From positions 236,339 to 300,338 of the forward strand of contig LCIO01000001.1 of the NCBI GenBank assembly GCA_001001115.1: 64,000 nt of DNA, read 5' to 3'. The stretch comes from Candidatus Wolfebacteria bacterium GW2011_GWA1_44_24 (GTDB lineage Bacteria > Patescibacteriota > Minisyncoccia > UBA6257 > UBA9933). Positions 1,092 through 61,432 of the stretch are shown here, piece by piece. Under the pieces are notes generated by a model. It made no database searches and was not told the origin of the DNA. It saw only the letters and a list, made by a program, of their open reading frames with translations. How positions within the stretch are numbered: the first letter of the stretch is position 1; every line of letters starts with the position of its first letter. The position numbers and the translations under genes were made by a program.

Positions 1092-4000
1092 TTAAGTCTT
1101 CAGCGTCACAATTTCCACCGTTGGCGTTCCTTCAGTGTAAAGGCCTGTGATGGTGTCGTTAAGATCGCCATCAAGGTTGGCGTCATAGCCGCCAAGATCG
1201 CTTTCCTTTACATAGAACAAGATATTGCCAAGAGCGTTGACGGATATTTGAACAGTATTGTTGTTTTCAGCCGCAACGTTTGTCTTAACAATCAAGTACC
1301 TCCAAGAACCGCCATCAATCTTGCGATTGGATTCGGAAACAGTCTCTATGTCGCCGAACGGCAATGTTGAAGAGCTCAAGCTGGTCCACAAACTGGAAGT
1401 GCCATAGCTGACATCGGCGCTGGCGCTGCCGGCTCCCATACTGGAAGCGTAAAGCTTCCAAGTGGTGGTTGCCACCGAACTGGTGGCGCTGCCGCCGTTA
1501 GCAAAAGTGATTGTGCCGGTAGCAAAGTAAATCGGATTGTTACCGTTATTGGTAACTTTGAACACTCCGACTGTTTGTCCAGCTGACAATCCAAGCGTAG
1601 TCGCCGTAGTCGGCGAAACACCGGAAACCGTGACTTTTTGAGGCACGATATAGGTGATGCCGGTTGATGTCGCCGTACCCGACTTGGTTCCGGTTGTTAA
1701 GCCGGTAACCGAGCCTTTTACCGCTATGTCGTCAGTCGTTGAAGCAACCATAAACCTGAAGTTGTCTCCAAGTTTGGACGCCGCACCGGAAACATCGGCT
1801 TTAACATAAATGTTAACGCCGGTTGTCGGCACTGGAGCGGAAAGCAAGTTGTCAACGGCGGTAAAGGTCTTTGAACAAGAGCTTACGCCGCACAAATCAA
1901 ATTGCGCCGCTGTGGCAAACGGACTGGCTGAAGGACTACCCTCGTACAATTTAATGTTCGCGAGAGTGGTGGTCGCCAGCGCCGCGCCGGTCGATGTCGC
2001 CGTAATCTTCAACGAAGTGATTTTTTGCGGTTCAAAGAGAGAAGTCAGTTTGAACGCAAAATATGTTCCGCCGGAAGTGCCGATGGACGCCACCTGATTA
2101 ACCGAAGGCGAAGCGCCCGAGCCGGAAACCACCGACAAGAGAAGCTGGCCGGAGCTAACCAAAGTCATTATCTGTCCGCTGCCGGCGAATGTAATGTCTC
2201 CGCCGCTCAAAGTATTGCCAGTGGTAACGCCAGTCGCCGTAATCGCGCTCGTTGAAGAAGCGATTGCATACGAACTGGTCGCATTATTGGGAATACCGGA
2301 CAAAATATTGGCTTTGAAATGCAATGTAGTCGGCGAAGTTCGAGTCACCAAAAGCGGATTGCTCAAATTAAACGTCACCGCATTGCTGGACAACGATTCG
2401 GTTGAAGCGGTTGTCGCAAGAGATGAAGTTTCGTCGCCTTTATACAGCGCATAGCCCTTAATGAAGTTGGCCGGCGAAGAACTGCTATTAGCCTGAGTCA
2501 CGACAATCTTGGTGACATTGACATCTTCGCCGCTTGATTGGGCGTTCAGCTCAATGATGGCAAATTCATAACCATTGGTGCCGGCAACAATCGATTGCGC
2601 AAGCGGAGTTGACAAAGTGGTTGCCGACAAAGCCGCCGCCTTGACCGAAATGGCGTTGCCATCGGTGGCGGTTGCTCCCGGGTCAACCAAATCGTTGGTT
2701 ACCAATCTCTTAACCTGCGTCAGGTCAAAAGATTTAACCGTGTAAGTGCTGGCCGCGGTCGCAGTGGTCGAAATTGAACCCTTAACCGTGATAGTGCTGT
2801 CTGTTCCGGCTGTTAATATCGGATAAGAGGACAATGTGAAAGTGCTGGCGCTTGCCACGCCGATGCTTGAAGCCGCGGTGCTGTAAACGGTTACGCCGTT
2901 GACTTCCACTTTAACCGTGCCAGTCAAAACAATGCCTGTTCCGCTGGTGGCGATGTAGAAGCTGATTTGGCGAAGTTCCATATTTTCACCGTTCGGTTTG
3001 GCCATATATTTAGCCAAAATAACGTCGGTTGAACCCGGAGTCACCGAACTGGTCGGAGAATCCGTGGCTCGGCTGAATGTCAGCGAACCCGAACCGATTG
3101 TCTGGATATTGAATCCATTGCCAATCGGAAAGGCTGTGTCATTCGTGCCGGCGCCCGGTATCACTGATACCATGGTGGTAGCGCCGCGAAGGTCAATGTC
3201 GTAGTTGTTATAAACCGCGAAATTGACTGTTCGGCTGGCGCCGTTGATGATTTTCGCTTTAACGATGAAATCCTTCGAAGTTCCCTTGTCAATATTGACG
3301 GGACTGGCCGAAAGATTAAATGTGACGTATTTACCAACCTGTTGAGCCGTGGCAAGCACGGTGGTGCCGTCCTGGGCAAGGAGTTGGACGTCTTTAACAT
3401 CGGTATCAGCCGCGCTGCCATAATTGTACAACATCAAAGTGTACAATTTTATCGCTTCATTGCTTGAAGATTCCGTAATGCGGAATCGGGTAATTTCCTG
3501 AACATTATTGGGGTCAACATTTAATGTTGAAGAACCCGTGGAAGTCAGCGCGTCAAGGGTTGTTGAAGCCAATGAAGTGCCGCCATTGACAACGCTCATC
3601 GCGTTGCCGTTGATCGGGAAAACGCCGTTAACCGCCGAAGCGTCGGAAACGATAGCCGAAGCCGAAGCAAGGCTGAAGCTTACGGTGCCGTTATAATCAC
3701 CGGTTACTAAATTGAACCGAACCGTGGCGGTTTCAGTTTTACCGGCTGAAACAGCAATCGGATCAGTTGACATCGTAATCAACACCGTATTATCGGCGTT
3801 AATTGAAGTAACCACGGTGCCGTGACGGACGCCGCTGGAATCAACCACGTCAACGCCGTTCATTTTGGTGTTGGCCAAGAAACCGCTCTTGGTTACCGTA
3901 ATAGCGGTAATTTTTGCGTCTTGGGAAGCGGTTAAATTAACTTTCAACGCTTTGTTGAAAGCCGTGCCCGAACCAATAGTCGCTGAAGCCGGGTTATCCG

Positions 4001-4499
4001 AGGCCAAAGCCAAAGTCAAACCGGTTCCTGGAGTTGTCGGAGTTGTTGGAGTTGTTGGAGTTGTCGGCGTAGTTACGGCCAATGAAGCCAAATAAGCGCG
4101 GGTTTTGGGACCGAAATATCCGGCAGCCGGAGAAACTCCGGCGCTGGCCTGATATTCACCCAAAGCCGCTCTGGTCAAAGAACCAAAAAAGCCGGTGGCG
4201 CCAACCGCTGCCAAAGCCGCTGCCGCTGATCCTTTATTGACGGATATCAGATAATTCTGCAGGGACTTAACATCGTCTCCCTTGCTGCCGACCGTCAAAT
4301 CGGTGGCAATCGAAGGAATTGAAGTCGCTGGCGCTTGAACCGCCAACTGCGCCTGCAAAGCCTGAATCTGAGCCAGCAAGGCCGTGATTTGCGCCTGCAA
4401 ATCGACGGTTGTCTGACCCATAGCGCCAACAGGAATCATGGTCGCTATCATGGTGATGGCAACCAGGGTTGTTGAAAATTTGTTTAATGTATTACTCAT
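1092..4499 (-). CDS. Very large (1135 aa) cell-surface protein with N-terminal signal/TM, coiled-coil, peptidoglycan-binding (PG_binding_1-like) domain, (TPT)n linker and a long Thr/Ser/Ala-rich repetitive Ig-like region
   Basis: ORF track 1135 aa. N-terminus is MSNTLNKFSTTLVAITMIATMIPVGA. The motif LQNYLISV…FGSLTRAALGEYQ…GYFGPKTRAYL matches the PG-binding domain 1 pattern. TPTTPTTPTTPTTP linker and low-complexity T/S/A/V/G-rich β-strand-like repeats. Terminator downstream. Confidence 0.75.
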   Translation of the reverse strand: MSNTLNKFSTTLVAITMIATMIPVGAMGQTTVDLQAQITALLAQIQALQAQLAVQAPATSIPSIATDLTVGSKGDDVKSLQNYLISVNKGSAAAALAAVGATGFFGSLTRAALGEYQASAGVSPAAGYFGPKTRAYLASLAVTTPTTPTTPTTPTTPGTGLTLALASDNPASATIGSGTAFNKALKVNLTASQDAKITAITVTKSGFLANTKMNGVDVVDSSGVRHGTVVTSINADNTVLITMSTDPIAVSAGKTETATVRFNLVTGDYNGTVSFSLASASAIVSDASAVNGVFPINGNAMSVVNGGTSLASTTLDALTSTGSSTLNVDPNNVQEITRFRITESSSNEAIKLYTLMLYNYGSAADTDVKDVQLLAQDGTTVLATAQQVGKYVTFNLSASPVNIDKGTSKDFIVKAKIINGASRTVNFAVYNNYDIDLRGATTMVSVIPGAGTNDTAFPIGNGFNIQTIGSGSLTFSRATDSPTSSVTPGSTDVILAKYMAKPNGENMELRQISFYIATSGTGIVLTGTVKVEVNGVTVYSTAASSIGVASASTFTLSSYPILTAGTDSTITVKGSISTTATAASTYTVKSFDLTQVKRLVTNDLVDPGATATDGNAISVKAAALSATTLSTPLAQSIVAGTNGYEFAIIELNAQSSGEDVNVTKIVVTQANSSSSPANFIKGYALYKGDETSSLATTASTESLSSNAVTFNLSNPLLVTRTSPTTLHFKANILSGIPNNATSSYAIASSTSAITATGVTTGNTLSGGDITFAGSGQIMTLVSSGQLLLSVVSGSGASPSVNQVASIGTSGGTYFAFKLTSLFEPQKITSLKITATSTGAALATTTLANIKLYEGSPSASPFATAAQFDLCGVSSCSKTFTAVDNLLSAPVPTTGVNIYVKADVSGAASKLGDNFRFMVASTTDDIAVKGSVTGLTTGTKSGTATSTGITYIVPQKVTVSGVSPTTATTLGLSAGQTVGVFKVTNNGNNPIYFATGTITFANGGSATSSVATTTWKLYASSMGAGSASADVSYGTSSLWTSLSSSTLPFGDIETVSESNRKIDGGSWRYLIVKTNVAAENNNTVQISVNALGNILFYVKESDLGGYDANLDGDLNDTITGLYTEGTPTVEIVTLKT

Positions 4500-31369: not shown

Positions 31370-32626
31370 ATGGATATGGGAAAAAAAGAGTCGTTGCTGA
31401 AAGCGCTTAAAGGCTTCTGGCTCGCGCTTAAAGGATTCTGGCTCGCAATGGGCATAATCTGCTTAATCCTGTTTTCCGCCGATATCTGGTTATCCGGATA
31501 TTCAAATTCCACGACATTTCTTGGCGCGGAATGGAAATGGAATTGGGGGTTGGCGGCATTTTTAGCCCAATTGTTTTATGTCGTTGTAAGTTTCCGGATA
31601 GTCGGACCGACAGAACTCGGAGCGGTGCTTTTCTTCGGAAAACCTCTATATAACGTGAAGTCCGGGCTAAACCTCGTTCCGTTCCTTGTGTGTCGGTTAG
31701 TAAAGAATACAAGGAATATTATCGAGATTGAGCTTCCTACTAGGCCTGAACTAATATTCAGGTCGGAATTAGAAAAAGAAGAGGTTGTTCCAAAGGATCT
31801 TCTGGACAATGGATACAAACCTCCAATCAGGGTTCAATTTGGCGCGCCGGGAATTGAATTGAGCACAAAAGAACTCGAGTCTCAGCTCAACGATCCCAAT
31901 ATCATGGAAGATGAACGCAAAAGATTGGAGAGAATCAAAAAACTCTATGAGACTTTAAATAGGTTTATAGCAAACGAAAATATCCAAAACGATCCGCTAA
32001 ATGTCCGCATGACTGCGGAAACTCCTCTCACGGTTCGATTGAAAATCAAAAGCCTTGTTAGGTTTTTGATAACGTTCGATTCACTAGAGAAAGCAAAAGG
32101 CCAAATCCAAGATATCGCGGTAGCGATGCTTAACCGCGAATTTTCAAAAATCACTCCCGCGGTGGCTCAAGCTCATCTCGGAACGTTTAGTGAGCTCATC
32201 AAAGAGGAAATCGCCGAAAGAATAGAGAGCAATAAGGGTGATGGCGGCATAGAGATTGTGACTGTGCTTTTGCGTCCTTTTGGCTACAGTCACAAACTTA
32301 ACGCATCTCTTCAATCATTTGCCGAAGCGCGAGCGAAAAAGCGGGCAACGGTTATTGATGCCGAAGCTCAGAAAGAGAAAGATACGCTTGAAGGCGAAGG
32401 AAAAGGTGCCGCTGAAAAAGCTATTATTGATGGAAGGACTGAGGGGTTTAAAGGAATGATGGAAAAACTCGGAGTTTCTGCTCAAGAGGTGCTTGGAGCT
32501 GAAATCGCCAGAGAATTCGCTGTCAATCCCGGCCAAAAAACGGTTATCGTCGGTCAAAAAGGCTTTGCTGATGTTCTTGGCATTGCCGCTGCGATAGGCG
32601 AGACTTTCAAGGAGGGAGGAAAATGA
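31370..32626 (+). CDS. SPFH/band-7 (stomatin/flotillin/HflK-like) membrane-scaffold protein
   Basis: Strong SD (CAAGGAGGAAAT). N-terminal TM. SPFH core …VVSFRIVGPTELGAVLFFGK…NLVPFLVCRLVKNTRNIIEIELP… Long C-terminal coiled-coil/Ala-rich region. N-terminal tandem duplication LKALKGFWLALKGFWLA. Confidence 0.75.
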   Translation: MDMGKKESLLKALKGFWLALKGFWLAMGIICLILFSADIWLSGYSNSTTFLGAEWKWNWGLAAFLAQLFYVVVSFRIVGPTELGAVLFFGKPLYNVKSGLNLVPFLVCRLVKNTRNIIEIELPTRPELIFRSELEKEEVVPKDLLDNGYKPPIRVQFGAPGIELSTKELESQLNDPNIMEDERKRLERIKKLYETLNRFIANENIQNDPLNVRMTAETPLTVRLKIKSLVRFLITFDSLEKAKGQIQDIAVAMLNREFSKITPAVAQAHLGTFSELIKEEIAERIESNKGDGGIEIVTVLLRPFGYSHKLNASLQSFAEARAKKRATVIDAEAQKEKDTLEGEGKGAAEKAIIDGRTEGFKGMMEKLGVSAQEVLGAEIAREFAVNPGQKTVIVGQKGFADVLGIAAAIGETFKEGGK

Positions 32627-33132
32627 GACTGGAGTTAATAATCTTTTTCATCTTTCTTGCAAGCGCGATTGTACTTTTCGCGTGGAAAAAAATAGAAAAA
32701 GAGGTTGAGAAGCCACAAGAGAAAAAACCCGGAGGGCCACAGCCGCCATCACCTAGCCGGAAAAAAATCCACTTAGCTAATGGCGTTGGGCTGGCCATAA
32801 TAATCCTCGCCGCAGTTATCATCTACAAGATGGTCGGAGAGGAATGGTTTCAGCCGCGGACGGCAACGGCAATCCACAAAGTCTGGGTTTTAGACCAGAC
32901 TGTGACGGTGTCATCAAATGAGTGGGTAAATTTACCCATAAAGTTTGACGGCAAGGAGTATAAGTTTGCTCCGGACACGACATCGGCAGAGATTGAATTC
33001 GTTGCCGACGGCCGTTACGGAATCGCCGACAGCCGCACCCAGTTTGACTTCGGAGAAATCCGAAAGTCGCTGAAGGCTAGAGCAATAAAGGAAAAAGCGG
33101 TGGTTTATATGTATACCGCTAATCCTTCCTGA
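32623..33132 (+). CDS. Membrane protein translationally coupled to the SPFH gene (possible NfeD-like partner)
   Basis: ATGA overlap with upstream stop. Two hydrophobic segments separated by a Pro/Lys-rich linker. β-rich C-terminal domain. NfeD assignment is by gene context only. Confidence 0.45.
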   Translation: MRLELIIFFIFLASAIVLFAWKKIEKEVEKPQEKKPGGPQPPSPSRKKIHLANGVGLAIIILAAVIIYKMVGEEWFQPRTATAIHKVWVLDQTVTVSSNEWVNLPIKFDGKEYKFAPDTTSAEIEFVADGRYGIADSRTQFDFGEIRKSLKARAIKEKAVVYMYTANPS

Positions 33133-33185: not shown

Positions 33186-33250
33186 TTTTAAAATTATTTG
33201 TTATTATGAATATATTGATATTGGTTGAATTTAATTTATAATTTAATTGA

Positions 33251-33670
33251 ATGATTAAATCATTTTCCGGAAATAAATTTTTATATTTGATTGCGATATT
33301 TATCATTTTTTTAAACATTCTGTTTTTTATCGGTATTAATAATATATCAGCGGCGGAGCCTCCTCCCGGCGGCACAACATACACCACTCCCTCTAAAAGC
33401 GGCGGTTTATACGACCCCTTGGGGGGACAAACCATCACCAGTTTAATCCAAAATCTTATCGGGTTTCTCATTAAAATCGGCGCGCCTATCGTGGCTTTGA
33501 TGGTTTTATACGGCGGTTTTTTGATATTGACCGCCGGCGACAAACCCGAGCAGATTACCAAGGGAAAAAACACCATTCTTTACGCGGCTATTGGCTATAC
33601 AATTATCTTGTGTTCTTGGGGCGTTATTTATATAATTCAACAAGTACTGGGAGCGAAATTAATAAAATGA
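33251..33670 (+). CDS. Small secreted two-TM-helix protein, subfamily B (…YGGFLILTAG…); first gene of the tandem array
   Basis: Promoter TTGATA-16-TATAAT upstream. Signal peptide/anchor then AEPPPGG…, TM1 IGAPIVALMVLYGGFLILTAG, loop DKPEQITKGKN, TM2 TILYAAIGYTIILCSWGVIYII. Paralog of 35319..35708 (-). Confidence 0.7.
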   Translation: MIKSFSGNKFLYLIAIFIIFLNILFFIGINNISAAEPPPGGTTYTTPSKSGGLYDPLGGQTITSLIQNLIGFLIKIGAPIVALMVLYGGFLILTAGDKPEQITKGKNTILYAAIGYTIILCSWGVIYIIQQVLGAKLIK

Positions 33671-33999
33671 AAATCTTAAACAAAATTTCATTATTTTCAA
33701 CAATTTTTTATTTAATGGGCATTTTCCCATTAATTGGTTTTGCTCAAGAATCTCCCGTTAAAAGCATTGATGATGTAATGAATGTTTTAAAAAGCATTGT
33801 TAATGTGATGTACACGGCTTTCTTTATTGTGGCGATTATGTTTATAATCCTTGCGGCTTTTAATTATTTAACCGCCCAAGACGATCCGGAAAAAATCAAA
33901 AGCGCCACTCGCCAGATAATGTGGGCGGCGGTGGCGATAGCGGTGGCTTTAATTTCGGTAGGATTTAATAAAATTGTAGAAAGTTTTATAAAACCATAA
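33667..33999 (+). CDS. Small secreted two-TM-helix protein, subfamily A (…LAAF(N/T)YLTAQxDPEKIK…), array gene 2
   Basis: ATGA-coupled to gene 1. Signal peptide …PLIGFA|QE. TM1 …MYTAFFIVAIMFIILAAFNYLTAQDDPEKIKSATRQIMWAAVAIAVALISVGF. 56-nt stretch identical to gene 3. Confidence 0.7.
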   Translation: MKILNKISLFSTIFYLMGIFPLIGFAQESPVKSIDDVMNVLKSIVNVMYTAFFIVAIMFIILAAFNYLTAQDDPEKIKSATRQIMWAAVAIAVALISVGFNKIVESFIKP

Positions 34000-34461
34000 A
34001 TGTTTTTGAATATAAAAAAAATCTTTATTTTATTATTGATATTGGGAATTATTTTCCCGATTTTTTCATTTGCTGCGTTTCCTGTGGGAGAAGTTGCTGG
34101 GCCTGGAGGAAAATTACCAGAAGGCGCGGGAATTAAAGAAGTTTCTGATTTAGTTGGCATTCTTACAAAAGTTCTTGCGTGGATATATACAATTCTTTTT
34201 ATTATTGCGATTATATTCATCCTCATTGCCGCTTTCACTTATTTAACCGCTCAAGCGGACCCGGAAAAAATCAAAACTGCCACTCGCCAGATAATGTGGG
34301 CGGCGGTGGCGATAGCGGTGGCTTTAATTTCGGTGAGTATTAATGTGATAATAAGCAATTTTATAAGCCCAAGCGATAGTGGAGTTTTAGTAAATCCTAG
34401 CGGACAAAGTCCTTATTATTTAGATGTAGATCTTGGAATTTTCAATAAACCGCGAAAATAA
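34000..34461 (+). CDS. Small secreted two-TM-helix protein, subfamily A, array gene 3 (longest; extra C-terminal tail)
   Basis: Start codon immediately after the gene 2 stop. Signal peptide …IFSFA|AFPV. Conserved core IAAFTYLTAQADPEKIKTATRQIMWAAVAIAVALISV. Confidence 0.7.
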   Translation: MFLNIKKIFILLLILGIIFPIFSFAAFPVGEVAGPGGKLPEGAGIKEVSDLVGILTKVLAWIYTILFIIAIIFILIAAFTYLTAQADPEKIKTATRQIMWAAVAIAVALISVSINVIISNFISPSDSGVLVNPSGQSPYYLDVDLGIFNKPRK

Positions 34462-34467
34462 ATAAAG

Positions 34468-34836
34468 ATGAAAAAAGTTTTAATTTTATCAATATTTTTA
34501 TCAATATTTATTGCAAATAATTCTTTTGCCATAACTGCCGGAACAATTCCTTCAGCCGAGCAATTGGGCGTTTCTAACGCCCCGAAAATTGAAAAAGTTG
34601 ACACATTAGTTAATATTATTAGAAATATCGTAAAGTGGACATATATAATTTTCTTTATCGTGGCCGTATTTTTTATAATTTTAGCGGCTTTCACTTATTT
34701 AACCGCTCAAGCGGACCCAGAAAAAATCAAAACTGCCAATAAACAAATTCTTTACGCGGTTATCGCCATTGTTATCGCTCTTTTAGCCATCGGCTTTGAT
34801 ACGATAATAAAATCATTTCTGCAAAGCGGCGCTTGA
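34468..34836 (+). CDS. Small secreted two-TM-helix protein, subfamily A, array gene 4
   Basis: Signal peptide …NNSFA|ITAG. Core NIVKWTYIIFFIVAVFFIILAAFTYLTAQADPEKIKTANKQILYAVIAIVIALLAIGFDTII. Confidence 0.7.
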   Translation: MKKVLILSIFLSIFIANNSFAITAGTIPSAEQLGVSNAPKIEKVDTLVNIIRNIVKWTYIIFFIVAVFFIILAAFTYLTAQADPEKIKTANKQILYAVIAIVIALLAIGFDTIIKSFLQSGA

Positions 34837-34904: not shown

Positions 34905-35258
34905 ATGAAAACAAAAATTTTTATTATTGCCGCGGGATTATTGGCAGTTTCGGCAATCGCGGGAAATGTCGCTTTAGCGATTCAAATTCCGGGTATCAGT
35001 CAGGTCGGCCCCACATCGGTGACCGGAACAGTGGATGTGATTAAAAATATTGTTAAGTGGGTTTATATTCTATTCTTCATCATCGCCGTTCTTTTCATTA
35101 TTTTGGCGGCTTTCAATTATTTGACTGCCCAGGGCGACGAAGAAAAAGTCAAAACCGCGAAAAATCAGATTATTTACGCGGTAGTGGCGATTGTCGTGGC
35201 TTTGCTGGCCGTCAGTTTTGACACCATTATCAGCAATTTCCTGCAAAGCGGTCAATAA
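34905..35258 (+). CDS. Small secreted two-TM-helix protein, subfamily A, array gene 5
   Basis: Signal peptide …NVALA|IQIP. Core NIVKWVYILFFIIAVLFIILAAFNYLTAQGDEEKVKTAKNQIIYAVVAIVVALLAVSFDTII. Confidence 0.7.
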   Translation: MKTKIFIIAAGLLAVSAIAGNVALAIQIPGISQVGPTSVTGTVDVIKNIVKWVYILFFIIAVLFIILAAFNYLTAQGDEEKVKTAKNQIIYAVVAIVVALLAVSFDTIISNFLQSGQ

Positions 35259-35278: not shown

Positions 35279-35316
35279 AAAAAACCCCGTTAGAATTTTC
35301 TATCGGGGTTTTTGTT
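35279..35316. terminator. Bidirectional terminator between convergent array genes
   Basis: AAAAACCCCG-ttagaattttctat-CGGGGTTTTT (A-run/T-run flanked). Confidence 0.5.
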
Positions 35317-35318
35317 TA

Positions 35319-35708
35319 TCAGCAGAATTTTCCCGCCTTTCCCCATTCCCAGGGCTTGAAGCTGCCTCCTCCTAAAATTTCTATAACTTCCCTAATAATC
35401 AGCCAGGCGCCCACGGCGATTAAAACGCCGATAATCGCCGATTGGATGATTTTCCGGCCTTGGGCCGCCCGTTCGGCCGATTCTCCGGCGGTCAATATTA
35501 CAAATCCGCCGTAAACAATGAAAATCACCGTAACGGGAATGGCGATGTTGTAAAGAGCGAAATTAATGACATTTTCAGCCAAAGTTTTCAGATGGCAAAA
35601 ATTGCACGCCGGTTCTCCGGCGCCGCCGCACGGCACAAGACCGGCGGCTTGAACAGCCATAACAGAAAACACGAAACAGAAAATGGAAAATAGAATTATT
35701 TTTTTCAT
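35319..35708 (-). CDS. Small secreted two-TM-helix protein, subfamily B (…YGGFVILTAG…), convergent with the array
   Basis: Signal peptide …AVQA|AGLVPCGG. Cys-rich N-terminus (CGGAGEPACNFC). TM1 IAIPVTVIFIVYGGFVILTAGESAERAAQGRK, TM2 IIQSAIIGVLIAVGAWLII. Paralog of 33251..33670. Confidence 0.7.
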   Translation of the reverse strand: MKKIILFSIFCFVFSVMAVQAAGLVPCGGAGEPACNFCHLKTLAENVINFALYNIAIPVTVIFIVYGGFVILTAGESAERAAQGRKIIQSAIIGVLIAVGAWLIIREVIEILGGGSFKPWEWGKAGKFC

Positions 35709-36998
35709 TTAAAGATTATTTATCTCGTTTTCGGCCTGTTCCAGCGCTTTTTCCGGCGACAATCTTCCGTTTAACACAGATTCTACCATATTGGAAAAAA
35801 TTTGTTTAACCGCGTTGTTGTCCGGCTGAAACCAGGATTTGGCGGTCAGAGTTTGATTAACAAATACTCCCAAGTCCGGGTCGTTTTGATATTTTTTGAA
35901 TAAATCTCTTAACGCCGGCGGCCGCTTTGACGCCAGAAGATACTGTTCGGCGATTTGATTATTGGCGGCAACGGAGATTATAAAATCCCACGCCAAAGCC
36001 GCGTTTTTGCTTTGATTAGAAACTGCCAAGCCCCAATAATCGGCGTAATTTACCGGCTTTTCTTTATTAAACTGAAGCATCGGCGCAACCGCCAAATTCA
36101 AAAAAGGATTTTTTGATTTAATAACCGGAATTGCCGAAGCATAATTCAAAATCGCGGCGGTTGTTTCCTGGCTGAAATTATCCAAAGAAGGCCGGAGGTT
36201 GTCGTTCCAGGTGTAATAAACGCTGGAAGGATTGCCGAATTGAAGATAAAAATTCAGGGCCTCAAGGCCGCCGGTTCTGGAAAAATTCGCTTGGCCGTTT
36301 TTATCGATCATTTCGGCGCCGAACTGAAACATCAATAAACTCAATAAATCGCCGGCCTTGTCAACGCTTTTTTCCGAACCGCCGATTGCCAAAGCCGCTT
36401 TGGCGATTTTGCCGCCGGAACCGATTTCTCTGAGCCGCGGAATCAGATATTTGAATTCATCCCAAGTTTTCGGCGCCACTGCCGCGCCTTTGACGTCAAA
36501 ATAATCTTTATTGTAAATCAGCGCGAGGGTATCAACATAAAGAGGCAAAGCGTAAATTCTGGCGGCGCTTGTAAAATCCTGCTCCGCCACTTGAGGGAAC
36601 AATTGGCGAAATCGGGCTAAAGAAATTTGCGTTTCAGCTGCCGGAAAAATTTTATTGTAATGTTTCGGCAGCCAACTATTGCGAAACATAAAAATATCCG
36701 GACCTTGACCGCTGGCCAAGGCGTCAACCAGAGAATCTTCAAAACTGTTTTCCGGAAATTGAGCGTAAGTTATTCTGACGCTCGGATTAATCTGGGAATA
36801 AGCGTCTATGGTTTGCCTCATTATCGTTTCATCTTCAATGCCCCAGAAAACGATTTCCGTTTGTTTTCCGCCGTAAAGGCCGCCGCCGGTTCCCGATTGC
36901 CTTAATCCCGGAAGGACGCCCAAAAGAATCAAAACGAAAAATAAAACCGCTGATCCGGCAATGCCAATAATAATTATTTGATTGCGGGTGAAATTCAT
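35709..36998 (-). CDS. ABC transporter extracellular solute-binding protein (family 1, sugar/oligosaccharide type)
   Basis: N-terminal TM anchor. 429 aa with SBP_bac_1-like composition (…IVFWG…DIFMF…W…). Confidence 0.6.
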
Positions 36999-39448
36999 AA
37001 AACAACTATTCCCGCCACCTTGTCTCCTTCTTTTAATCTCATTATTTTGACTCCGGAAGTGGCGCGGCCGCTGATTCTGACGCTGGAAATTTTTGTTCTG
37101 ATAATTTGGCCCTTAGCGGAAAGCGCCAATAATTCTTCTTCATCGCCGATAATCCGGGCGCTAACGACTTTTCCGGTTTTGCTTGTGACTTTGGCGGTTT
37201 TAATTCCCGAACCGCCGCGGCTTTGAACTTTATATTCTTTAAGCGCTGTTTGTTTGGCAAATCCGTTTTCCATCACCACTAATAGCCGCTGGTCGCTGGT
37301 TGCTGGTTGCTGGTCTTTTTTAATTATATCAATTCCAGCCACAAAATCACCGCCTTTCAACCTAATGGCCTTGACGCCGGCCGCTGTCCGGCCCGTTGGC
37401 CGCAATTGGCTTTCTTTGAATCTGATTGCCTGACCAAAAACGGTGGTTAAAATAATTTCGTCTTTCCCGGAAGAAAGCTTTGCCCACTTCAATTCGTCTC
37501 CCTTGGAAAGATTAATGGCAATGATGCCGCTTCGCCTGACATTGGAAAAATCTTCCAAAGATGTTTTTTTGATTATTCCGTTTTTCGTCGTCATTACCAA
37601 ATAGTTATCGGTTATTGATTGTTTGTTCTCGATTGAAGCGTAAGAAACTATGGCGCTGATGTTTTCCCCAGCCGGAATTTCCAAAAAATTCTGAATCAAT
37701 TTTCCTTTGGCCGTCCGGGAACCAACCGGGATTTCATAAACTTTGGTCTGAAACGCTTTCCCTTTGTCGGTGAAAAATAAAATATTGTCGTGGGTATCGG
37801 CGGAAATAAAATGGCTCAATAAATCTTCTTCCGCCACTTCTCCGCCAATCAACCCCTTGCCGCCGCGGCGCTGAGCCTTAAAAGTCGTCGGGGGAATTCT
37901 TTTAATATAGCCCGCGGCCGAGAGAGAAATAACCGCTTCTTCCTGCGGAATCAAATCTTCTTCTTTGAATTCTTTGAGTCCGGCAACGACAACTTTGGTC
38001 CGACGTTCATCGCCGTATTTTTTTTTCAGTTCCAAAAGTTCGTCTTTGATGACTTTTAATATCTTTTGCGGGCTTTTAAGAAGCGTCTCAAGGCCGGCAA
38101 TGAGTTTTCTTTTTTCTTTAAGTTCGTCTTCGATTTTTTGCCGTTCCAAAGCCGCCAAAGTCCTTAATTTCATTTCTAAAATCGCGGCGGCCTGGATATC
38201 GGTGAGTTTGAAATTTTTCACCAATTTTTGGTGGGCTTCTTCGCTGTCTTTTGATTTTTTGATGGTTTCGATAATTTTGTCGATTACCGAAAGCGCTTTA
38301 CTCAATCCTTCCAGAATATGAGCTCTTTCCTTGGCTTTTTTAAGGTCAAATTCCGCCCGCCTTTTCACCACTTCTCGGCGATGTTCGACATAAGCCAAAA
38401 GGATATCTTTAAGCGAAAAAAGCTGGGGCTGAATGCCCGCCGAAAGCGCTATCATGTTAAAATGAAAATCTTTTTGAAGGTCGGTATATTTATATAATTG
38501 ATTGAGGATTTTTTGCGCCAAAGCGTCGTTTTTGAGTTCAATAACGATTCGCAGGCCTTCGCGGTCGCTCTCGTCGCGGATATCGCGGATTCCTTCAATT
38601 CTTTTCTCTTGCGCCAGTCCGGCGATTTTTATAATCAGCTCGGATTTGTTCACCTGGTAGGGGATTTCCGTTATGACAATATCAAGCTGATTTTTGGCTC
38701 GCTCGACAATTTCCGCCTTGGCCCGAACAGTAACGGGGCCGCGGCCGGAAGCATAAACTTCGCCAATCGATTTTTTATCGTAGATAATTCCTCCGGTGGG
38801 AAAATCCGGACCCTGGACAAATCGCAATAAATCTTCAACAGCCGCTTTGGGGTTTTCAATCAGATGGATGACGGCGTCAACGATTTCATTCAGATTATGA
38901 GGCGGAATATTGGTGGCCATTCCCACGGCAATTCCCGAAACGCCGTTTAACAAAAGATTAGGAAGTCTTCCCGGCAAAACTTTCGGCTCGTTGCGGCTAA
39001 CGTCGTAATTGGGTTGCCAATCAACGGTTTCTTTCTCAATATCAAACAAGAGTTCTTCGCTAATTTTTGACAACCGCGCTTCGGTATATCTCATTGCCGC
39101 GGCCGCGTCGCCGTCAACGCTGCCAAAATTGCCCTGGCCGTCGATTAAAGGATAACGCAAGGAAAAATCCTGGGCCATTCTGACCAAGGCGTCGTAAATC
39201 GACATATCGCCGTGCGGATGATATCGGGCCATTGTCTGGCCGATAACATTGGCCGATTTTCTGAATTTGACATTTGCGGTCAAACCGTCATCCCACATTG
39301 CCCAGAGAATCCGCCTTTGAACCGGCTTCAATCCGTCCCGAACGTCGGGCAAGGCGCGGGAAACAATTACCGACATCGCATAATCAAGATACGACTCGCG
39401 AAGTTCATCGGTGATTTCCCGTTTTTCAATTTTTTCTGTTTTATCCAT
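36995..39448 (-). CDS. gyrA: DNA gyrase subunit A
   Basis: …[29 protein letters not shown]…, active-site Tyr region (AAAMRYTE), C-terminal β-pinwheel repeats. 817 aa. Confidence 0.93.
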
Positions 39449-59525: not shown

Positions 59526-59672
59526 TCTGACCCTGTGGGCAAATTAGGAATTGTTTTTAGTTTTCGGACGATTCGGCTCCGGCTGGGTCTATCCTCGGAA
59601 CAATTCTTGACCTTGCGGGATTTATCTCCCGCGAGACTTTAACCAATGTGCCCACAGAGTCAGGCGGTTTTT
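59526..59672 (+). ncRNA. Candidate structured small RNA (~145 nt) closed by a 15-bp outer stem and followed by T7; class unknown
   Basis: Outer stem CTGACCCTGTGGGCA / TGCCCACAGAGTCAG. Inner stem GGAATTGTT / AACAATTC. Hairpin CTTGCGGGA-tttatc-TCCCGCGAG. 3' GGCGGTTTTTTA. Lies between the pilB stop and the ruvB start. No SRP RNA helix-8 motif seen. Confidence 0.4.
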
Positions 59673-61399
59673 TATTGCCACGCTATCGATCCGGTCGCCG
59701 ATTCCACTTCCTCAAAAGAAGTGAAGCCGGAAATTATTTTCAAAATACCATCCTGCTGCATAGTTACCATTTCCTGATTCAGGGCGAATCTTTCAATCGC
59801 TGATTCCGGAGCTCCGGCCAAAATCAAATCCTCCAACTCTTTACGAGAGGAAAGGTCGCGATGAGCCGGATTAATAAGCAATTTTTCATACTCCGGGTCG
59901 TTTAATAATAATTCATAAATTCCGATTCGGCCAAGATAACCGGAGTTATTACATTTTAAGCATCCTTTCGGCTGATAAATTTTAATTTCTTTGAAATTGT
60001 CCCGGCTGACTCTTCTCGGCAATTTATCAAAGAATTTCTCGATTTTGTTTTTAAGTTCGGGGTTGGTCTCTTGGGGACTTTTACAAAACCGGCACAAGCG
60101 GCGAACCAGTCTTTGGGCGATTATCAAATTCAGCGCCGGCCCGATGCTGGACGGCTTAACGCCCAAATCAAGCAGCCGAGGAACGACGCCCGAAGCCGAA
60201 TTGGCGTGAACCGTTGAAAAAACCAAATGTCCGGTCAGGGCGGCTTGAATACCGATTTCCGCTGTTTCTTTGTCGCGCATTTCGCCGACTAAAATAACGT
60301 CTGGGTCCTGACGCATTAAAGAACGTAAACCGTTGGCAAAAGTGTACCCCGCCCCTTCGTCAACCTGGGTCTGTTCAATCCCTTCCAAATGATACTCAAT
60401 CGGATCTTCAATGGCGATGATTTTTATGGTCGGGCTTTTTTTATATTTAAGGAAAGCGTAAAGGGTGGTGGTTTTGCCGGCGCCGGTCGGTCCGGCGTTT
60501 AAAATCATGCCGTTGGGCCTTTTCAATTCGGTTTTAATAATTTCTAAATCGTCTTCCCTGATCCCCAAATCCGACAGGGTTAAGTTGACGACTTCCGGGT
60601 CAAGCAAACGCATTACCGCCACTTCCCCGAATTCCGAAGGCGCGATCGCCACCCTGACTTCGATTTTTTTATCAGGGAAAGAAATGCTGAATCGGCCGTC
60701 TTGCGGTTTGTTGCGAATATTAATTTTCAGATCGGAAAGCAATTTGACGCGCGAAAGCAATCGGGAATAAAAATCGCGCCCAAAATTTTCAAACGCGTCG
60801 TGCAAAATGCCGTCAATTCTAATTCTTAATTTCACCCTATCTTCAAGCGGCTCAAAATGAACATCCGATGCCCGCAAGACAAGCGCGCCGAACAAAACAA
60901 TTTCAAAAATTTTGCCCAACTCATCATTAAGAAAATCAATTGAGCCAAGTGCTTCGGTAAAATTTTTAACCGAAACCAATTTCTCTTTAAGTTTTAAGAA
61001 TTTGTCCGTCTGAATTTCAATTTTGCCGGTGATTTGCTTTTGACGCTCGGAAATAAAGCGGTAAAAATCAAAAGCGCGGGAAAGGCCGCTTAAAGAAGCG
61101 GTAAAAAGCCGAATTTCAAACCCCTGGGACTTCAGTTTTTTAGTCAATTCTTTGACTAAAAACGAGTCGGGGTCCGCGGCCGCTATAAATAATTTTTTTT
61201 CTTTAATATCAACGGCAACAATTTGCGTCTTTTTGGCGATTTCCTTAGAAATCAATCCCAGCGCTTCAGTATTAATGGGTAAGGCCGACAAATCAATATA
61301 GGGATGGCCACTTTTTTGAGCTCTTCTTTGAGCGTCTCGCTCTTCGGCTTGGCGCCGCAAATTAGTCAATTTTTGCTGAAGATTAGAACCTGGCAACAT
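59672..61399 (-). CDS. pilB: Type IV pilus assembly / type II secretion ATPase PilB (GspE family)
   Basis: N-terminal T2SSE_N region. Walker A GPTGAGKTTT, Asp box, His box (…VHANSASG…), tetracysteine CxxC…CxxC. Start set at the internal Met (MLPGSNLQQKL); the ORF-track start at 61432 would overlap promoter-like TATATAATAT. Confidence 0.85.
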   Translation of the reverse strand: MLPGSNLQQKLTNLRRQAEERDAQRRAQKSGHPYIDLSALPINTEALGLISKEIAKKTQIVAVDIKEKKLFIAAADPDSFLVKELTKKLKSQGFEIRLFTASLSGLSRAFDFYRFISERQKQITGKIEIQTDKFLKLKEKLVSVKNFTEALGSIDFLNDELGKIFEIVLFGALVLRASDVHFEPLEDRVKLRIRIDGILHDAFENFGRDFYSRLLSRVKLLSDLKINIRNKPQDGRFSISFPDKKIEVRVAIAPSEFGEVAVMRLLDPEVVNLTLSDLGIREDDLEIIKTELKRPNGMILNAGPTGAGKTTTLYAFLKYKKSPTIKIIAIEDPIEYHLEGIEQTQVDEGAGYTFANGLRSLMRQDPDVILVGEMRDKETAEIGIQAALTGHLVFSTVHANSASGVVPRLLDLGVKPSSIGPALNLIIAQRLVRRLCRFCKSPQETNPELKNKIEKFFDKLPRRVSRDNFKEIKIYQPKGCLKCNNSGYLGRIGIYELLLNDPEYEKLLINPAHRDLSSRKELEDLILAGAPESAIERFALNQEMVTMQQDGILKIISGFTSFEEVESATGSIAWQ

Positions 61400-61432
61400 T
61401 GATAATATTATATAACAGAAATAGTTTTCCAC

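Follow-up and report, generated by a model that had tools for sequence, protein, structure and literature searches.

Probable short-tract gene conversion between adjacent genes of a VirB2-like pilin array in a Candidatus Wolfebacteria genome

Introduction

How do two neighbouring genes that are otherwise strongly diverged come to share an exact stretch of 56 nucleotides (nt)? The question is posed by a tandem array of small genes in a 64,000-nt stretch of DNA from Candidatus Wolfebacteria bacterium GW2011_GWA1_44_24 (contig LCIO01000001.1, positions 236,339 to 300,338), hereafter the window, from whose first nucleotide all window positions are counted. The array consists of six paralogues of PF18895, the VirB2/TrbC-like pilin family of type IV secretion systems (T4SSs): five plus-strand genes (g1 to g5) in what looks like one operon, and a sixth (g6) on the opposite strand. 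The repeat lies in g2 and g3. A first-pass annotation of this DNA had interpreted it as a gene-conversion tract with a mosaic continuation in the fourth gene, and had likened the array to the recombining cassettes of antigenic variation in pilins and surface proteins. The analysis presented here supports the first of these propositions and argues against the second. We consider it probable, at roughly 0.85, that a short stretch of g2 was converted into g3 and that g3 and g4 underwent an exchange besides; the event is real, if fairly ordinary, gene conversion between tandem paralogues.

An identical tract in two diverged genes

The 56-mer (GCCACTCGCC...TTTCGGT) is present in exactly two copies in the window, both on the plus strand: the putative donor copy at 33904-33959 in codons 80-98 of g2 (ATRQIMWAAVAIAVALISV), and the putatively converted copy at 34279-34334, corresponding to residues 94-112 of g3. 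A third copy with up to three mismatches was found neither in the window nor in 100 shuffles. Mismatches at 34277-34278 and at 34335 delimit the tract in g3, which can span at most about 58 nt. Extension to the wider stretch (33865-33959 versus 34240-34334) gives 89 identical positions out of 95, in agreement with the earlier estimate of more than 90% over about 95 nt; the 39 nt located 5′ of the exact tract are identical at only 33 of 39 positions, which does not exceed the usual conservation of the YLTAQxDPEKIK motif. The mosaic continuation that had been described for the fourth gene corresponds to a second patch—termed patch B here—in which 34231-34282 of g3 and 34687-34738 of g4, both on the plus strand, are identical at 51 of 52 positions. 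Patch B and the 56-nt tract overlap by four nucleotides, GCCA, such that a 104-nt stretch of g3 is composed of a g4-like piece followed by a g2-identical piece. Both patches abut an A-rich loop block, CCGGAAAAAATCAAAA, which is common to g2, g3, and g4. The tract also stands out by its composition, with a GC content of 0.59 and a GC content at third codon positions (GC3) of 0.67, as compared to a GC3 of 0.25-0.28 in the rest of g2 and g3.

That such a repeat exceeds chance expectation in view of the surrounding divergence, as proposed at first pass, is borne out by two kinds of test. In a GENECONV-style permutation of polymorphic sites among the four core genes, concordant sites form an uninterrupted run of 29 between g2 and g3 (p ≤ 5e-5) and of 11 between g3 and g4 (p = 4e-4), whereas the remaining four gene pairs yield p ≥ 0.04. 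Counting matches among codons for the same degenerate amino acid, synonymous codons of g2 and g3 are identical in 16 of 16 cases inside the tract versus 25 of 40 outside (Fisher p = 0.003); for g3 and g4 the figures are 16 of 17 inside patch B versus 19 of 35 outside. With the g2-g3 codon match rate observed over the same stretch in five other genomes (24/61), the probability of 16 synonymous matches out of 16 amounts to approximately 3e-7.

Donor, direction, and timing

The same ordered array, with separate orthologues of each paralogue, is present in seven related genomes: H, from Hainich groundwater (L012), N (GCA_039739135.1, L015), S (L016), A (L051), B (L052), C (L053), and D (L054). A codon alignment was split into four segments, and the nearest neighbours of g3 from the window genome (W_g3) were listed for each. 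Ahead of the patches, the nearest sequence is the orthologue H_g3 (63/96). Within patch B it is W_g4 (47/48), and within the 56-nt tract W_g2 (54/54), the next nearest being the g2 orthologues H_g2 (48/54) and S_g2 (44/54), ahead of every g3 orthologue. Downstream of the tract, the nearest sequences are the orthologues H_g3 (29/36) and S_g3 (28/36). W_g2, by comparison, groups with the g2 orthologues in all segments, indicating that the donor has remained unchanged. Over the same 54 nt, g2 and g3 of one genome agree at 35-43 positions in six other genomes, versus all 54 here. Individual codons point in the same direction: the Thr-Arg codons ACT CGC are characters of the g2 lineage that are carried by W_g3, g3 orthologues having ACC/CAT AAG/AAA instead, and the Ile codon ATA is limited to W_g2 and W_g3 among 15 sequences.

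The features by which interparalogue conversion is recognized—a tract of excess identity, phylogenetic incongruence between tract and flanks, and a donor that keeps the sequence of its lineage—are all found at this locus, and the original assignment of gene conversion between g2 and g3 is thereby strengthened with an identified and unaltered donor. As judged from the sequence comparison, the transfer is non-reciprocal, proceeds from g2 to g3, and is recent, postdating the split of this lineage from its sequenced relatives. In patch B, W_g3 has Tyr-to-Phe and Asn/Ser-to-Thr states that appear to come from g4, two out of three diagnostic residues pointing from g4 to g3. Owing to the copy from g2 and the exchange with g4, g3 is, on the evidence of the alignment, a g3/g4/g2/g3 mosaic.

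The same comparison bears on two further explanations. One holds that g3 arose as a recent duplicate of g2, of which the tract is the last undiverged remnant while the rest diverged rapidly under positive selection. The two genes are indeed adjacent and represent the most similar pair over the core (0.73). However, g2 and g3 form separate lineages in each of the seven related genomes, so that the duplication predates these species; the flanks of W_g3 group with g3 orthologues, and beyond the tract, synonymous divergence matches that of other pairs. A recent duplication is therefore scarcely credible. According to the other explanation, selection at the nucleotide level—on an RNA structure, a regulatory site, or an overlapping element in both genes—keeps the 56 nt identical. 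The unusual GC and GC3 values of the tract could be taken in its favour, as could an alternative-frame open reading frame (ORF) of 54 amino acids that overlaps the g3 copy. Yet g2 orthologues that encode the same peptide differ from W_g2 at 6-20 of the 54 sites, mostly synonymously, and neither the exact nucleotides nor compensatory pairs are conserved across orthologues. The tract has no match in Rfam and does not fold better than its shuffles (z = -1.16), and the high GC3 is native to the Ala/Val-rich helix in g2 orthologues. We regard nucleotide-level selection as having next to no likelihood. The composition of the tract had also raised the suspicion of a third, GC-richer donor; this candidate was rejected, as g2 orthologues share the composition and a hidden Markov model (HMM) scan finds only six pilin genes in the window.

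Position of the tract in the pilin

An AlphaFold model of g3 consists of a leader helix (residues 3-23), a disordered segment, a helix spanning residues 48-83, a loop (84-87), a second helix (88-122), and a disordered tail, with a predicted local distance difference test score (pLDDT) of 70-81 in the helical hairpin. Together with the array alignment, the model displays the hallmarks of a VirB2-like protein, i.e., small size, an N-terminal leader helix, two hydrophobic helices, and a short charged loop. A Foldseek search of the model against PDB returned generic helical hairpins but no match at E ≤ 0.001, and a profile search against PDB sequences yielded no match.

The 56-nt tract (residues 94-112) falls inside the predicted second helix, whereas patch B (residues 78-95) runs from the end of helix 1 through the loop into the start of helix 2. 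On the basis of the model, the tract would have overwritten the first two-thirds of the second transmembrane helix of g3. At the protein level, g3 has changed little: helix 2 acquired about three conservative substitutions, and the loop region another three. The parts that vary between paralogues are the N-terminal segment of the mature protein and the C-terminal tails; both are untouched by the exchanges, and both are presumably exposed.

Independent assemblies and a hybrid scaffold

The first-pass annotation had itself named assembly collapse as a possible non-biological source of the identical tracts. In two ANAN16 scaffolds, stretches of N coincide exactly with the g2 copy or fall within it (L001 5806-5905, equivalent to window 33904/33905; L007 2909-2933, equivalent to approximately 33919-33943), and a third scaffold skips the 375-base pair (bp) loop between the copies, as would be expected if the arrangement had been produced by repeat collapse or by a chimeric path through short reads. 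Two further contigs are broken at the repeat (L072 stops at window 33972, and L061 begins at 33921); the runs of N and contig ends at the tract show that the repeat breaks short-read assemblies. A collapse, however, may delete or exchange flanking sequence, but it cannot generate the same 56-mer twice in distinct unique surroundings, and 56 nt is short enough for single 150-nt reads to span. Moreover, at least 24 contigs, built by different pipelines from numerous samples of Rifle groundwater, contain the locus, all 100% identical to the window over 2.2 kb or more. These comprise more than ten independent assemblies (IDBA, MEGAHIT at k127 and k141, JGI), among which the MEGAHIT k127 and k141 assemblies, whose k-mers exceed the repeat in length, and the JGI assemblies reproduce the full arrangement from different samples without a single difference. 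An assembly artefact is thus highly improbable as the origin of the tract.

The scaffold lacking the 375 bp, scaffold_3806 (Rifle sample SAMN03202998, ANAN16, 14.3 kb; L057/L068), deserves separate consideration. It joins window 33667-33959 to 34335-34461 and thereby encodes an in-frame g2::g3 hybrid pilin of 139 amino acids with the 56-mer as its junction (L068 2917-3336, identical to L057 2075-2494). Its left flank (3209 nt) and its right flank (3058 nt) match the window without mismatch, and single-nucleotide polymorphisms that would mark a separate haplotype are absent from both flanks. The hybrid protein is recorded from this one contig, and the reciprocal product is not on record among 15 billion proteins. 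While the scaffold could represent a real deletion allele generated by recombination between the direct repeats, it may also be exactly the error expected of a de Bruijn assembler that skips a short loop at low coverage; we consider the deletion allele the doubtful one of these two interpretations. It is correspondingly unlikely, though worth keeping in mind, that the 56-nt direct repeat now serves as an active recombination substrate, with scaffold_3806 as a genuine in-frame deletion allele that fuses the N-terminus of g2 to the C-terminal tail of g3. If true, conversion followed by unequal recombination would act, in natural populations of the candidate phyla radiation, to vary the copy number of VirB2-like pilins and to reshuffle their exposed ends, which would be relevant to the adaptation of a surface organelle of presumed epibionts to their hosts.

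Two candidates for additional variants were discarded. L063 had appeared to contain a second hybrid (a 139-amino acid ORF before g4), but the contig merely starts inside g3; P0017, a protein of 42 amino acids that clusters with the hybrid, is only the C-terminal part of g3, beginning directly downstream of the tract. A degenerate junction pattern and the bare 56-mer gave no match in a metagenome contig collection that evidently lacks these Rifle samples, a result that is uninformative with respect to variants.

Similar tracts in other arrays

A scan of GTDB species genomes revealed 34 further loci, nearly all of them arrays of four to six pilin genes. Exact runs of at least 40 nt occur in 4 of 326 within-array gene pairs: 96 nt between genes 7 and 8 of L041 (5748-5843 and 6223-6318), 75 nt between genes 2 and 3 of L035, another Wolfebacteria array (3330-3404 and 3703-3777), the 56 nt described here, and 44 nt between genes 4 and 5 of L041 (4569-4612 and 4971-5014). 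All such tracts, which belong to Paceibacteria arrays, connect adjacent genes and lie in the core formed by helix 1, loop, and helix 2, with the reservation that adjacent genes are also the most similar pairs, so that adjacency and relatedness are confounded. Judged by their sequences, these tracts seem to reflect independent conversion-like events in at least two further arrays. In the H genome, a lineage-specific helix 1 patch, AVMFILFAAY, is common to g3, g4, and g5 and absent from the W and N orthologues, and g4 and g5 share an exact run of 31 nt (L012 6701-6731 and 7261-7291).

Mechanism and consequences

The most straightforward scheme is that 56 nt of g2 were copied non-reciprocally into the adjacent paralogue g3, and that a second exchange homogenized the 52 nt just 5′ of the tract between g3 and g4. 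The A-rich block CCGGAAAAAATCAAAA probably provided the homology anchor. As to the enzymology, repair mediated by RecA and templated by the neighbouring paralogue, or template switching at microhomology during replication, might account for the transfer.

Several points weigh against this reading or limit its resolution. As deduced from the relatives, g2 and g3 were probably only about 70% identical here before the event, which is low for classical RecA-dependent recombination and leaves the mechanism uncertain; taken together with the shared A-rich block, this level of identity makes relaxed homeologous recombination or a template switch plausible. The tract is short, with 54 comparable nt, and tree-based support accordingly rests on few sites. 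The direction of patch B is ambiguous because few g4 orthologues cover the patch and H_g4 carries a lineage-specific patch, and its GCG Ala codon matches neither lineage cleanly. Finally, the related genomes are single consensus sequences of metagenome-assembled genomes, and support is drawn from assembly consensus rather than from read-level data.

Since the transfer introduced only about three conservative residue changes into helix 2 of g3, it may have been neutral or nearly so. Its net effect is local homogenization, or concerted evolution, of the structural core formed by helix, loop, and helix. Some indirect support is thereby lent to the hypothesis of co-assembly, in which the copies would have to be compatible in their cores.

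Organization and neighbourhood of the array

With scores of 29.6-47.4 bits, each of the six genes exceeds the Pfam gathering cutoff of PF18895 (26.6), matches to the TrbC family PF04956 being weaker and below threshold. The first-pass annotation had counted five genes; the sixth is the minus-strand g6, and an HMM scan of all window ORFs detected no pilin copy beyond these six. The first gene, g1 (33251-33670, plus strand, 139 amino acids, E 1.3e-11), represents a divergent subtype (...ILTAGD...). The start of the tract donor g2 (33667-33999, plus strand, 110 amino acids; NCBI UU85_C0004G0037) overlaps the stop of g1 in the sequence ATGA. The mosaic acceptor g3 (34000-34461, plus strand, 153 amino acids, including a C-terminal tail of 35) begins right after the stop codon of g2, and its exact protein sequence is deposited at NCBI as a hypothetical protein of Candidatus Wolfebacteria bacterium GW2011_GWA2_42_10. 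The series continues with g4 (34468-34836, plus strand, 122 amino acids) and ends with g5 (34905-35258, plus strand, 117 amino acids), both identified by the Pfam profile, as is g6 (35319-35708, minus strand, 129 amino acids), which converges on the operon. Intergenic spacing from g1 to g5 is -4, 0, 6, and 68 nt, head to tail, and every copy in the array is full-length with its own start codon and signal helix or peptide. A single strong promoter-like site was found, just 5′ of g1 (TTGATA-16-TATAAT, 11/12, at 33215-33242, plus strand); it is a candidate operon promoter by consensus match only. At 35280-35313 (plus strand), 3′ of g5, a hairpin followed by a T-run (AAAAACCCCGTTAGAA/TTCTATCGGGGTTTTT) resembles a terminator that would act bidirectionally with g6, and has weak, sub-threshold matches to terminator-type Rfam models. 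By their arrangement, g1 to g5 look like one operon of complete genes, and all copies may well be co-expressed. In one MEGAHIT contig (ERZ27254729 k141_775716; L061 ~1541, window ~35462-35463), g6 lacks two G's, CCTTGGGCC being changed to CCTTGCC with a frameshift to 104 amino acids; an apparent g6 variant in L004/L056 proved to be only a scaffold gap of 10 N.

This organization is pertinent to the notion of a programmed and ongoing recombination of pilin "cassettes" that generates antigenic or host-range variation in the manner of Neisseria pilE/pilS, Anaplasma msp2, or Borrelia vlsE. A tandem array with variable N- and C-terminal regions, in which g3 bears patches from two different neighbours and one scaffold joins g2 and g3 exactly across the repeat, is what such a system might look like, and a role of VirB2 arrays in variation or host adaptation has been the subject of published speculation (PMC12102498). 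But silent, truncated, or promoterless copies are missing: the genes are complete, with start codon and signal peptide, in one apparent operon. Each paralogue is individually conserved, with orthologues in at least seven related genomes, and the five-gene array is kept across species. It is the conserved core, and not the variable regions, that contains the exchanged segments, both in the window and in L012, L015, L035, and L041. The consensus contigs, at least 24 from many samples and assemblers, are identical with the one ambiguous exception of scaffold_3806, whose hybrid protein is confined to that contig and lacks a reciprocal counterpart. The likeness to cassettes and to antigenic variation drawn at first pass is therefore not sustained, and we judge programmed variation very unlikely; the preferred explanation remains gene conversion among complete, separately maintained paralogues. 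A diversity-generating retroelement was considered and rejected, as the repeats are identical rather than differing at adenines and no reverse transcriptase domain occurs among the neighbours scanned.

Upstream of the array, the window encodes an SPFH/Band_7 protein and a hypothetical protein of 169 amino acids (32623-33132) without a Pfam match; downstream, a solute-binding protein and gyrA follow. An SPFH/Band_7 gene and a familyless protein of 141-169 amino acids always precede the array in relatives (window 31370-33132; L012, L015, L053), and this constant position 5′ of the array in related genomes suggests a functional link between the pair and the pilins. Array content, on the other hand, is not fixed, as indicated by inserted genes: some relatives have a lipoprotein-like non-pilin gene of 163 amino acids between g3 and g4 (L051 874-1365, L054 1550-2041, L053 2397-2660), and the Hainich genome has a charged ORF of 100 amino acids between g1 and g2 (L012 5357-5659). 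On the 3′ side, the array of relatives is followed by origin-proximal rpmH-rnpA-yidC (L012 7663-8795, L014 2451-3717, L015 7713-8755). In the window (interval compared, 35709-39448), the array is followed by g6, the solute-binding protein, and gyrA, whereas gyrA, solute-binding protein, and g6 lie upstream of the Band_7 gene in relatives; the differing order of neighbours shows that the region has been rearranged around the array. VirB4, VirB6, coupling protein, or other T4SS domains were not detected among the large ORFs and array neighbours scanned in the window. Elsewhere in the window, the minus strand encodes a T2SSE/MshEN ATPase of the kind associated with type IV pili or type II secretion (59672-61432) and a protein of 1135 amino acids in which a peptidoglycan-binding domain is the only one recognized (1092-4499); as far as tested, neither has a connection with the VirB2-like array.

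Comparison with known systems

In the pilE/pilS system of Neisseria, short non-reciprocal tracts are exchanged between pilin copies and give rise to mosaic genes. The protein concerned is a type IV pilus pilin unrelated to VirB2, encoded by one expressed locus and a set of 5′-truncated silent copies. Tracts fall into the variable regions, exchange depends on a guanine-quadruplex (G4) element and RecA, and populations become heterogeneous at high frequency. The Wolfebacteria array resembles this system in its short tracts and mosaic genes, whereas the features that distinguish pilE/pilS are not apparent in the sequences and assembly consensus studied here.

The virB2 arrays of Anaplasma phagocytophilum and Bartonella resemble the present array in layout. 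They likewise consist of tandem paralogues with a signal peptide, two hydrophobic helices, and a conserved core, and their hypervariable regions are also located near the mature N-terminus and near the C-terminus (PMC3556328). Unlike the organism studied here, Anaplasma and Bartonella are diderm intracellular pathogens that face adaptive immunity, and copy number ranges from 8 to 15 between strains (PMC3556328). A role of virB2 in antigenic variation is itself a hypothesis in these bacteria, and the paper describing them documents no exchange tracts (PMC3556328).

Regarding the process, the closest parallels are found in conversion between duplicated housekeeping genes. Conversion between tufA and tufB in Salmonella proceeds through RecA-dependent repair, yields contiguous tracts, and is strongly limited by mismatch repair (PMC5485169). 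As with tuf genes (PMC5485169) and rRNA operons (PMC8022953), the array presents a non-reciprocal contiguous tract, an unchanged donor, and homogenization of paralogues. There is nevertheless a difference in scale: tuf and rrn copies are nearly identical over approximately 1 kb or more and convert in a RecA-dependent manner, whereas the partners here are approximately 60-70% identical, the tract measures about 56 nt, and the anchor is a shared block of about 16 nt. The enzymology may differ accordingly, with template switching as one possibility.

The kind of array is best matched within the Patescibacteria themselves, where VirB2-like arrays have recently been recognized and are widespread. 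A survey comprises 441 arrays of 2-11 genes with a mean within-array identity of 25% and a maximum of 54% at the amino acid level, and suggests host adaptation as their role (PMC12102498); in Ca. Southlakia epibionticum, the only case amenable to genetics, the series of pilins encoded in the T4SS cluster has proved essential (PMC10633639). The present array agrees with these (PMC12102498, PMC10633639) in its PF18895/PF04956 family membership, in the tandem arrangement of five to six small genes, and in the strong divergence between copies; in addition, the array of relatives adjoins rpmH-rnpA-yidC near the origin, as do the T4SS genes in the report on Patescibacteria (PMC12102498). The present array differs in that no virB4 or other T4SS gene was detected among the ORFs scanned in this 64-kb window, and in that the core identities of g2-g3 and g4-g5 are as high as, or higher than, the published maximum of 54% (PMC12102498). 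Gene conversion within arrays is not mentioned in that survey (PMC12102498), and a literature search found no report of it in Patescibacteria pilin arrays.

Rather than a new kind of mechanism, the conversion of g2 into g3 is a further, well-supported case of interparalogue conversion, a process already known, in an array type that is likewise known. It offers a clean, orthologue-controlled case in which adjacent copies swap short core tracts while the N- and C-terminal parts that distinguish them stay separate. Since mosaic genes mislead, pilin trees and identity statistics for such arrays need to be read with care; the same applies to short-read assemblies of arrays, given the N-gaps and the one loop-skipped scaffold at this repeat.

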